From an uncultured Chlamydiae bacterium (lineage in GTDB: Bacteria > Chlamydiota > Chlamydiia > Chlamydiales > SM23-39): a stretch of DNA of 64,000 nucleotides. How positions within the stretch are numbered: the first letter of the stretch is position 1; each line of letters begins with the position of its first letter. The position numbers and the translations under genes are program-made. Positions 5,445 to 8,091 of the stretch are shown piece after piece. The notes under the pieces were generated by a model. That model saw nothing but the letters and a program-made list of their open reading frames with translations. It was not told the origin of the DNA and did no database searches. The DNA lies in contig CAWHDP010000002.1 in assembly GCA_963828125.1 (NCBI GenBank), positions 1,792,001-1,856,000 on the forward strand, given 5' to 3'.

Positions 5445-5729
5445 ATGTCTCGTCACGAAACTTTAAAAAATAAATGGGCGGAGATCGTAGCAAAAGCATG
5501 GATTGACCCAAAATTCAAACATAAACTTTTGCAGCATCCTGATGAGGTGTTGCGAGAGATGAAGTTGAAAATGCCTGGGAATGTGCGGCTTAATATTGTC
5601 GAAAATACTCAAGATATGTACTACTTGGTTTTGCCGGAAAAACCTGTGGAGAATCTTTCTGAAACAGAGCTGAAAAAAATAGCGGCGGCAGCTCCGGGTG
5701 GTTATACAACGAATCGGGGTTTCGAGTAG
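5445..5729 (+). CDS. NHLP (nitrile hydratase-like leader peptide) RiPP precursor
   Basis: IVAKAWIDPKFKHKLLQHPDEVL...IVENTQDMYYLVLPEKP..LSETELKKIAAA matches the NHLP leader consensus (AW.D..F...LL..P; VVE......YLVLP; LS.EEL..VAGG). A short C-terminal core follows, and the gene sits directly upstream of YcaO. Confidence 0.9.
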   Translation: MSRHETLKNKWAEIVAKAWIDPKFKHKLLQHPDEVLREMKLKMPGNVRLNIVENTQDMYYLVLPEKPVENLSETELKKIAAAAPGGYTTNRGFE

Positions 5730-5765
5730 GGGTGAAAAAAATGGCGGCGGCCGCTCCCGGCTGTT
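5670..5765 (+). repeat. Degenerate direct repeat (62-nt period) of the leader-end/core-start coding sequence
   Basis: ctgaaaaaaatagcggcggcagctccgggtggtt (5670) versus gtgaaaaaaatggcggcggccgctcccggctgtt (5732). Confidence 0.85.
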
Positions 5766-5783
5766 GGCCGATCTCGAAACAAC

Positions 5784-5811
5784 CTAGCCCGAGTTCACGA
5801 ATTCGGGCTAG
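5784..5811. repeat. CTAG-bounded hairpin
   Basis: ctagcccgagttc-ac-gaattcgggctag inverted repeat. Its 3' CTAG begins ctagcccgcat, as in the elements at 30412 and 49429. Confidence 0.7.
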
Positions 5812-5824
5812 CCCGCATCGCAAG

Positions 5825-5850
5825 AGCCAGTTTTGCAAACTGGCTTTTTT
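5825..5850 (+). terminator. Intrinsic terminator/attenuator between precursor and ycaO
   Basis: Perfect stem agccagttt-tgc-aaactggct followed by a T run. Confidence 0.7.
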
Positions 5851-5883
5851 CTCTTTTCATGGATCTAGATTTATAGGAGCTAA

Positions 5884-8091
5884 ATGTTTGAAAAGCCGCG
5901 GTTTAAATCTAAATTCCGAGTAGAGGCGCTCTCATCGACAGAACTGCTTCTCTTGCAAAACAATCAAGATCCTCATCTGCTTTCAGGAAGAGTCTATGTC
6001 GCCCTGGTCCCTTTCTTAAAAAGGGGAGCTTGTCTCGATGCGATTTATGCTCAGCTGGAGAAAAAATTTTCCTCGGCCGAAATTTTATATGCTCTGATGA
6101 GGTTGGCTGAGAAGGGATATATTGAGGAAAAAGAGGCTCGGCTCAGACCGTCTACGGCTTTTTTTGCCTCGCTTTTGGGAAAGGGTGAGAAGGAGGCTTA
6201 TCAGCTTCTCAATAAAGTCAATGTGTCGGTGATCGCGTTCGATAAAAAAATTCGGAGAGGGATCGAAAGAAGTTTAGAGAGGCTCTCGGTTCGGTTGAGC
6301 CCAAAGGGAGATATCGCATTGGTGGTGACCGATGATTACCGGAACCCAAAACTCAAAGAGGTCGCGCTTGAATTATCGCAAGCGGGTACGCCTTGGCTTC
6401 TTGCAAACATATCGGGTTCGGAGGTCTGGATGGGCCCCTTTTTTAGCTCGCAAACATCGGTTCAATACGAAGATCTCCTCCATAGGTTAGAGATGAATGC
6501 AAAGGAAGAGGTGGAGCTGGAGCGGAAAAAAGGGCGTATGTTTTCTCCCAGCCGGGTGAGGTTGACCACGAATTTGCAAATCGGTTTTTCTCTGATCGGA
6601 GGTGAAATGGCGAGGTGGATTTTGGTGGGGGAAAATCCCGAATTGCAGAATCGCATTTCTATCTTTGATTCGATCCGCTTTAGCTGGCACTCGCATTCTA
6701 TATTCAAGGTGGGCTACACAAAATCGACGCCTCCCAAGGAGCGGCTGGAACCTTTGGAGCTTAGAGATTTCCCTCTTCATGAAAACCGGACCGCTCCGGA
6801 ATTAACATGGCTCCGGTATCGGCACGTGGTGAGTCCCCACACGGGGATTGTCCGTTTTCTAGAGTCTATGGAAGACAAAGATTCTATGATTCAAGCGTAT
6901 GGGGCTTCCCACTCCATGTCCCAGCTGCACAAATTCATCGATCGTCCCTTCATGGAGGGCGGATCTACCCACAGCGGCGGGAAAGGGAAAACGGAGGCGG
7001 AGGCCAAGACGAGTTGTCTTTGTGAGGCGATCGAGCGCTATAGCGGAGGATTTCAGGGAACTGAAATCTGGAAAACAGCTGCATTCATTGAGTTGAACCA
7101 GGATGCTGTTTTCCCCCCTCAATGCTTAAACTACAGCGACCTTCAGTATCAGGGGCGCGATTTATGGAATGCGGGAATTCACAAATTTCATTGGATTGGA
7201 GAGCGATTCGATCCAGAAAAAAAGATCGATTGGTCGCCGATTTGGTCTTTAACGGAAAGGCGGCATAAGTGGATTCCCACCCAATTTTGCTACTATGGCG
7301 TTCCTGGCGATGGAAAAGAGGCTATTTGCATCGGAGATTCGAACGGCTGCGCTGCTGGCAATACGATCGAAGAGGCGATCCTTCAGGGGTTCTTCGAGTT
7401 GGTGGAGCGGGATGGGATCGCTATTTGGTGGTACAACCGGCTGAATCTGTCTGGCGTCGATGTGGAGAGTTTTCACGATCCATACTTGGACCGGTTGATC
7501 GAATATTATAGAAAAAAGGGTCGGGAAATTTGGGCTATCGACTTAACGTTTGATTTGGGATTTCCGACGTTTGCGGCGATTTCTCGAGAGAAAAACAGAG
7601 AGGGAGGGGAGAGGATCCTAATGGGTTTTGGATCTCATTTTGATCCAAACATCGCATTGGTTCGAGCTTTTAATGAGATGGGCCAAACTCTGGGTGCGAT
7701 TCGGGCGCTTAAGGAAAATGGCCCCGCTAAAAATCCGGCGTTCCGCAGCTGGCTCGAGAGCGCTACTGTCAAAGAACATTCTTATCTTCTCCCTTGCGCT
7801 AAGAAAAATTGTAAACGGCTCTCCGATTATCCCCCTTTCATCTATCAGACCTCTCTTGAGGCGATCTCCCTTTGCAGCCGTTCTGTCGAGGAAAAAAACA
7901 TGGAGATGCTCGTCCTCAATCAAACAAGGCCTGAAATTGGATTGCCTGTAGTCAGGGTCGTTGTGCCAGGTTTGCGCCATTTCTGGAATCGATTCGCTCC
8001 GGGCCGCTTGTACGATGTGCCTGTTCAGCTCGGTCTGATTGAACGCCCTTTATCAGAAAAAGAGCTAAACCCTGTACCGATGTTTTTATGA
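5884..8091 (+). CDS. TOMM leader-binding/E1-like-YcaO fused cyclodehydratase (PatD/TruD-like architecture)
   Basis: Contains SGGKGKTEAEAKTSCLCEAIERYSG, DSNGCAAGNTIEEAILQGFFELVERD and VVRVVVPGLRHFWNRFAPGRLYDVPV, and ends in the Pro-rich LNPVPMFL typical of azoline-forming YcaOs. The N-terminus is RRE-like. Confidence 0.93.
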   Translation: MFEKPRFKSKFRVEALSSTELLLLQNNQDPHLLSGRVYVALVPFLKRGACLDAIYAQLEKKFSSAEILYALMRLAEKGYIEEKEARLRPSTAFFASLLGKGEKEAYQLLNKVNVSVIAFDKKIRRGIERSLERLSVRLSPKGDIALVVTDDYRNPKLKEVALELSQAGTPWLLANISGSEVWMGPFFSSQTSVQYEDLLHRLEMNAKEEVELERKKGRMFSPSRVRLTTNLQIGFSLIGGEMARWILVGENPELQNRISIFDSIRFSWHSHSIFKVGYTKSTPPKERLEPLELRDFPLHENRTAPELTWLRYRHVVSPHTGIVRFLESMEDKDSMIQAYGASHSMSQLHKFIDRPFMEGGSTHSGGKGKTEAEAKTSCLCEAIERYSGGFQGTEIWKTAAFIELNQDAVFPPQCLNYSDLQYQGRDLWNAGIHKFHWIGERFDPEKKIDWSPIWSLTERRHKWIPTQFCYYGVPGDGKEAICIGDSNGCAAGNTIEEAILQGFFELVERDGIAIWWYNRLNLSGVDVESFHDPYLDRLIEYYRKKGREIWAIDLTFDLGFPTFAAISREKNREGGERILMGFGSHFDPNIALVRAFNEMGQTLGAIRALKENGPAKNPAFRSWLESATVKEHSYLLPCAKKNCKRLSDYPPFIYQTSLEAISLCSRSVEEKNMEMLVLNQTRPEIGLPVVRVVVPGLRHFWNRFAPGRLYDVPVQLGLIERPLSEKELNPVPMFL

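Follow-up and report, generated by a model that had tools for sequence, protein, structure and literature searches.

A partial, out-of-frame leader-end repeat behind an NHLP-type RiPP precursor gene of an uncultured Chlamydiales bacterium: probably a gene relic

Introduction

Ribosomally synthesised peptides with post-translational modifications (RiPPs) made from precursors with a nitrile-hydratase-like leader peptide (NHLP) were described by Haft et al. (2010; PMC2887384), together with a 13-residue motif preceding the cut site. Within the leader end, LxxxxL is placed at positions -12 to -7 and is bound by both YcaO and the C39 protease (PMC10858898), and the C39 protease LahT requires hydrophobic residues at -4, -7 and -12 (PMC6363468). 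The leader-end motif used in the present work was taken from these three papers. The stretch of DNA analysed here (64,000 nucleotides of contig CAWHDP010000002.1, hereafter the window) holds a cluster which is like the NHLP/YcaO/SagB systems with TIGR03794/03796/03797 transporters in having a long nitrile-hydratase-like leader, the 13-residue motif, a short variable core and the same enzymes and transporters. Behind the stop codon of its precursor gene lies a second, partial leader end followed by core-like sequence (copy 2). Copy 2 is, in our view, probably what remains of the 3' end of an NHLP precursor that was duplicated, and is probably no longer translated. Within one open-access collection of papers, searches for NHLP in Chlamydiae (in those words), for frameshifted precursor pseudogenes and for programmed frameshifting in RiPP precursors all came back without a paper.

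The repeat behind the precursor stop codon

5445..5729, forward strand: NHLP-leader RiPP precursor, 94 residues (TIGR03793, 68.3 bits against a cut-off of 50.9; Shine-Dalgarno (SD) duplex -12.1 kcal/mol)
5655..5690, forward strand: leader end LSETELKKIAAA with L(-12), L(-7) and I(-4), aligned to the GG, AA and AG ends of relatives
5691..5726, forward strand: predicted core 1, APGGYTTNRGFE, with two Thr and neither Cys nor Ser (from the translation; putative boundary)
5728..5783, forward strand: copy 2, the partial leader end VKKMAAA plus the core-like APGCWPISKQP, -1 frame, likely a relic
5742..5770, forward strand: hairpin that copy 2 is predicted to form, -16.5 kcal/mol (pairing probability 0.75-0.95 for inner and 0.27-0.37 for outer pairs)

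The initial annotation of this locus, made from the letters alone, had reported that the leader end recurs 62 nt downstream in the -1 frame and that the sequence diverges after APG, and these three statements were confirmed. Copy 1 occupies 5670-5703 and copy 2 5732-5765; with flanks, the similarity covers 38 nt at 82% identity, and its local alignment score of 48 was matched by 0 of 5000 shuffles and by 17 of 5000 positions drawn at random from the genome. Copy 2 lies in the precursor's -1 frame, in a stop-to-stop frame of 5663-5923, and the core tails of the two copies are unalignable (3939/5000 shuffles score equally well). The differences within AAAAPG had also been called synonymous, which is correct for all three; in the 11-codon block, three of the six are non-synonymous (L/V, I/M, G/C) and the synonymous bias is not significant (p 0.10-0.23; at least three of six synonymous in 23% of random trials). 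The claim that copy 2 supplies the Cys and Ser missing from copy 1 stands as to their absence, which core 1 shares with 14 of 97 related cores, but core 1 is not short of substrate because two Thr are present.

Copy 2 reads G(-12), G(-8), V(-7) and M(-4) at the positions of the leader motif, the Leu(-12)/Glu(-8) part being absent. It resembles a truncated gene relic in being homologous to part of an intact gene and in having neither the start nor most of the length. No homologue of the copy-2 open reading frame (ORF) was found, and Tandem Repeats Finder reported no array. A gapped extension of the repeat upstream into NLSETE is a hint only, with 30/300 and 9/200 shuffles as good in the window and 48/200 and 128/200 in two relatives described below (G293 and G433, respectively). 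A third repeat unit near 5770 was rejected (114/3000 shuffles as good), as was an origin of copy 2 from the second NHLP precursor of the genome, on contig C1, with which it shares 18/34 positions compared to 28/34 with copy 1.

The sequence that follows copy 2 has a bearing on what the -1 frame could encode.

5784..5818, forward strand: 28-nt palindrome CTAGCCCG...CGGGCTAG and a further CTAGCCCGCAT end, the ends of a dispersed repeat resembling miniature inverted-repeat transposable elements
5822..5857, forward strand: intrinsic-terminator-like hairpin of 12 bp with a T run

Of the second core proposed in the initial annotation, only the stretch APGCWPISKQP is unique; SPSS... behind it comes from the palindrome, which carries the ends of a genome-wide repeat family. 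After these 11 core-like codons the -1 frame runs through the palindrome, the terminator-like hairpin and the first 40 nt of ycaO, and it continues for 56 residues beyond the putative cut, a length to compare with related cores (median 14 residues; 2/97 reach 55). There is no stop before the terminator-like hairpin, and a transcript ending there would have no stop codon for the copy-2 frame. Nine such end pairs of the dispersed repeat occur in the genome, and CTAGCCCGCAT is found at 28 genome sites, of which three are inside long ORFs, although these cover 84% of the genome. The region 5700-5890 folds with a z-score of -3.5, and a search of Rfam gave one match, far below its threshold.

The short intergenic repeat family to which these ends belong has CTAG-CCCGCATTTCTC ends and members of 24-595 nt, seen in the window at 5784, 30412 and 49429-49525 and also genome-wide. 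No parent transposase of this CTAG-ended family was identified.

Accuracy of the assembly

One base missing from the G4/T3 run, as suggested in the initial annotation, would make the true gene an in-frame two-cassette precursor. Contigs from two public runs, X1 and X2, both of one study and X1 possibly of the source sample, were used to examine this. Positions 5715-5735 are bridged by contigs of both runs with zero gaps and no differing letter. Compared with the window, the public-run contigs differ by 69 substitutions and expose 10 extra bases, all within window 1000-13000 and away from the repeat (nine in dnaE, one in a transporter gene). In the window, dnaE is spread over four frames (1575-5297) and the C39 transporter over two (10853); these frame breaks are attributed to assembly errors because the public-run contigs show the extra bases. 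The comparison thus detects indel errors elsewhere in the window and none at the repeat, and a missing base is not supported here.

Apart from these nearby errors, a missing base could draw on the protein record P0006, which derives from an error-rich contig and enters the copy-2 frame. However, the frame of P0006 changes 5' of the heptamer and a second time past KKM, and a third break is found in P0004, whose contig is of the same length; since the frame change lies elsewhere and further breaks are present, P0006 was not counted as support. An assembly indel behind the copy-2 frame was rejected on the gap-free X1 and X2 contigs, and we give this explanation next to no credence.

Similar pieces behind other precursors

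Relatives were surveyed at 255 loci in genomes belonging to the same order, which gave 204 distinct precursors that have 120 nt or more of sequence downstream; kin among them are not independent. A shuffle test was applied to the 189 with a spacer of at least 25 nt; ten rows were at 10/1000 or below, five of which were kept and five dropped as gappy or low-complexity (L253, L176, L200, L211, L123). From this test and a motif scan, a partial precursor copy starting at most 3 nt from the stop was found for 5 of the 189 precursors. The frame of the copy is -1 in the window, G293 and G483 and +1 in G433 and G095.

In G293 (L125, G293:C1, minus strand, reverse-complement positions 2545-2675) the piece AELKQIAAAGQGHVIGVDAL, closed by a stop codon, begins 2 nt after the precursor stop and consists of a leader end, a core and its own stop, followed by the usual spacer of the array; its leader end LKQIAAA is that of the other array members. 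The last 46 nt of the G483 precursor, including the stop, are tandemly duplicated at an offset of 47 (L215:791-886), the leader end ELEKLAAAAG of G433 starts within the precursor stop codon (L104:1762-1873), and G095 has a decayed copy. Other states were also encountered: a 5'-truncated paralogue in frame 0 (G456), a lone 26-codon ORF with MSDHELKPIAGG and a core directly before a precursor array (G042; L094, minus strand, reverse-complement positions 12281-12362), and a separate 52-residue gene which overlaps the precursor stop (ATGA) before an HlyD-like gene and whose product combines a leader that is short and basic with an NHLP-type leader end and a core (G043; L093:1979-2137).

Look-alikes in both shifted frames are the pattern expected of duplication and loss in precursor arrays, and they support the remnant of a paralogous precursor that was among the options of the initial annotation. 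An out-of-frame stop within codons -13 to -7 is present in 84 of 97 leader ends, and as such stops are common, fusions of a stop to a leader end that finish there would be explained. The events themselves may have been as follows. A second, once-adjacent precursor copy would have diverged in its core while its leader end stayed similar; a deletion or slippage would then have fused the stop of the first gene to the second leader end, and a CTAG-ended repeat would later have inserted into the tail. A short duplication of the last ~60 bases of the precursor would be an alternative origin of the relic under the same reading. Copy 2 would now lie in the 3' untranslated region of the precursor, where three hairpins are predicted ahead of the YcaO gene and copy 2 makes the first, and the cluster would yield a single azol(in)e peptide, from the Thr-Thr of core 1, possibly with an additional one from the C1 paralogue.

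Searches for the precursor in genome contigs gave no orthologue, a degenerate search with the repeat pattern returned 8 records from unrelated taxa, and a YcaO search of metagenomes returned 7 distant loci. As a separate observation, the whole NHLP leader domain is doubled within one precursor in many relatives (P0007, P0041, L008, L010, L017), P0007 and P0041 being the only two such cases among 154 proteins.

Alternative explanations

5717..5723, forward strand: in-frame heptamer G_GGT_TTC (X_XXY_YYZ)
5697..5701, forward strand: SD-like GGTGG in the Gly-Gly codons, 16 nt 5' of the heptamer (passes the 6-17 nt rule of PMC4066793)
5729..5743, forward strand: SD-like GGGGTGA with an ATG at 5741, a possible separate start (duplex -11.1 kcal/mol)

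A number of observations speak against copy 2 being a relic. The window satisfies all three loose -1 frameshift rules of PMC4066793, copy 2 has a strong SD and ATG, and all six differences between the copies stabilise the copy-2 hairpin (p 0.02-0.07), which could mean selection. In G293 the core contains A_AAG and the -1 frame across the stop reads LLIAEL, which fits LxxxxL; both leader-end-bearing -1 cases have a top-three tetramer and an open -1 frame, compared with 21 of 204 precursors, a comparison chosen only after G293 had been seen. Of the look-alikes, G433 was detected by the motif scan alone and G095 is borderline (5/1000 among 189 tests). No close orthologue was found, the nearest YcaO proteins being 30-39% identical over long matches, and for this reason the decay of copy 2 is not directly observable. 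We regard the frameshift, SD and hairpin signals as modest coincidences individually, which jointly leave the rivals as a group a minor but appreciable probability. The first of these, the recoded alternative core of the initial annotation, holds that a few percent of the precursors are extended, by a programmed -1 frameshift at G_GGT_TTC, into copy 2, which would offer Cys and Ser to YcaO behind the single N-terminal leader. The heptamer is indeed in frame as had been noted, the -1 frame is open (both hold for 7 of the 204 precursors), the R_RR.U_UU.Y class was named shift-prone by Sharma et al. (PMC4066793), and a 47-nt hairpin of -17.2 kcal/mol, 6 nt (or 9 nt) 3' of the heptamer, passes the 4-10 nt rule of the same paper; YcaO could still use the first leader, as happens in cyanobactins (PMC5934393), and G293 shows the same geometry with A_AAG. 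However, G_GG.U_UU.C is not among the 18 motifs selected in PMC4066793, where selection also demanded under-representation, and some such heptamer is present in 5% of 8-codon and 14% of 21-codon windows of the genome. The SD rule is also passed by 18% of 4002 genome heptamers and the hairpin rule by 52% of 150, and the firm stem begins 18 nt 3' of the heptamer, the outer 5 bp of the hairpin including two G-U pairs. Among the five precursors with a post-stop copy the slippery heptamer is found only in the window; the hairpin of G293 does not pass the rule, G483 offers no more than a weak C_CCA, and two look-alikes are in +1. The product, of 159 residues, would end in repeat, terminator and YcaO-start sequence and would be stopless on a terminated transcript. 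Release of core 2 would likely be poor, because the second cut site has G(-12) and G(-8), together with V(-7) and M(-4), where hydrophobic -12, -7 and -4 are required. The signals pass loose rules, but recoding in the window is quite improbable, and we hold at the same low level the wider proposition that -1 frameshifting gives RiPP precursors of this order a second cassette of leader end plus core, with the window and G293 (A_AAG, proper stop) as two independent cases. To judge from its letters, G293 is the best candidate for a recoded second core.

Copy 2 could instead be a separate small ORF from the ATG at 5741, coupled to the precursor stop; ribosomes moving through the terminator hairpin would then tune read-through into ycaO, or a leaderless substrate would be made. 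The strength of its SD is reached by 1.8% of 6000 random ATGs and about equals that of the precursor itself, C-to-G at 5732 strengthens it and ATA-to-ATG creates the start, and the 52-residue short-leader ORF of G043 is a precedent; but the ATG is at the foot of the -16.5 kcal/mol hairpin, the 60-residue product is without homologue, absent from the protein collection and mostly repeat-derived, and the piece in G293 lacks an ATG, its only starts being weak TTG codons. We think this unlikely. There is still less to be said for a silent donor cassette, from which recombination between the two leader-end repeats would bring core 2 in after the full leader. Three lineages (window, G293, G433) have direct repeats where leader and core meet, and a deletion between them would leave G293 with a short precursor of normal form, but a swapped window gene would carry the 56-residue repeat-derived tail, the repeats are short and 18% diverged, and the ORF list shows no recombinase beside the cluster. 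No contig joint skipping the 62 nt was seen, though contigs drop rare variants. Lastly, copy 2 may have been retained for its RNA hairpin, as a stabiliser of the precursor mRNA, a role that would be compatible with a relic origin. Each of the six reversions weakens the fold by 0.4-3.4 kcal/mol, only 35 of 729 other combinations of bases at these positions give an equally good fold, and the folding of the region is in favour too; however, the effect was noticed post hoc at the p-values given, five of the six changes are to G or C, and there is no noteworthy Rfam match. This role appears very improbable. On balance, the relic of a duplicated precursor is the explanation that we prefer.

The cluster and other features of the window

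5884..8091, forward strand: fused YcaO cyclodehydratase with its own SD (TIGR03604, TIGR03882 and PF02624 above cut-off)
8088..9446, forward strand: SagB/ThcOx-type dehydrogenase (TIGR03605, PF22767)
9343..15322, forward strand: NHLP export cassette of an HlyD-like protein, a C39-peptidase ABC transporter and a second ABC transporter

The precursor belongs with NHLP precursors by its leader end, which has L(-12), S/T, acidic residues, L(-7) and a hydrophobic residue at -4 before a small-residue pair (Ala-Ala, not Gly-Gly), and by its position next to an export cassette and modifying enzymes. From the alignment, the cut is likely after the third Ala (IAAA). The best matches of the export cassette are TIGR03794/03796/03797, each under the whole-protein cut-off, and PF03412 was also matched; C39 was the only protease family found in the cluster, and the C39 transporter is split near 10853 solely through assembly error. 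The second NHLP precursor of the genome (G000:C1:80280-80560, L020; core GGPISLFES) is located away from the cluster and is possibly a further substrate of the same YcaO.

Two large autotransporters are encoded at 15207-20636 and 40986-43829, the first directly 3' of the RiPP export cassette. At 25899-30415 five genes whose N-termini are near-identical follow one another in tandem, each 5 nt past the preceding stop, the first being of the PD-(D/E)XK nuclease family (PF12784), and 51328-53415 encodes a 695-residue protein whose sole Pfam match is a C-terminal HicA-like domain. In the genome an Hc1 histone-like profile is above cut-off, as it is in one control genome, and this match is in keeping with a chlamydia-like organism; PF03504 was unmatched in the genome, which is uninformative.

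Comparison with known systems

As a relic, copy 2 is ordinary, and it is the recurring junctions of stop codon and leader end that are worth note. They are likely footprints of the origin of new cores by duplication followed by deletion or out-of-frame fusion, and the pieces behind the stops record former cores. If frameshifting were true, recoding would be added to RiPP biosynthesis and genome mining would be overlooking cores behind stops; for this G293 is a better test case than the window.

When compared to the NHLP systems of Haft et al., Ala-Ala is present here instead of Gly-Gly at the cut (18/82 motif-bearing relatives), and the partial out-of-frame copy behind the stop is a feature that goes unmentioned in the available portion of PMC2887384. 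The IS3-family -1 frameshift signals (PMC4066793) are alike in that the screening rules are passed by the heptamer, by the SD-like motif upstream of it and by the hairpin downstream, but the spacing in the window is marginal and its -1 product ends in non-coding repeat sequence.

The multi-core precursors of cyanobactins and microviridins (PMC5934393) resemble the window in that a motif occurs again ahead of core-like sequence that differs and one leader could serve several cores. Their cores share a single reading frame and the precursor ends soon after the last, whereas the window repeat is out of frame and stopless. The multi-core precursor proposed in the initial annotation is contradicted by this: the offset of 62 nt without an indel leaves the copies in different frames, copy 2 lacks a complete protease site, and an in-frame short cassette was found in 0 of 154 proteins and in none of the 131 precursors checked.

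Prochlorosin arrays (PMC10783134) differ in their Nif11 leader and lanthipeptide chemistry, and leader-end relics behind stops were not seen in the portion of that paper available. They are nevertheless like the present family in having many paralogous precursors whose cores are diversified by insertion-deletion events.

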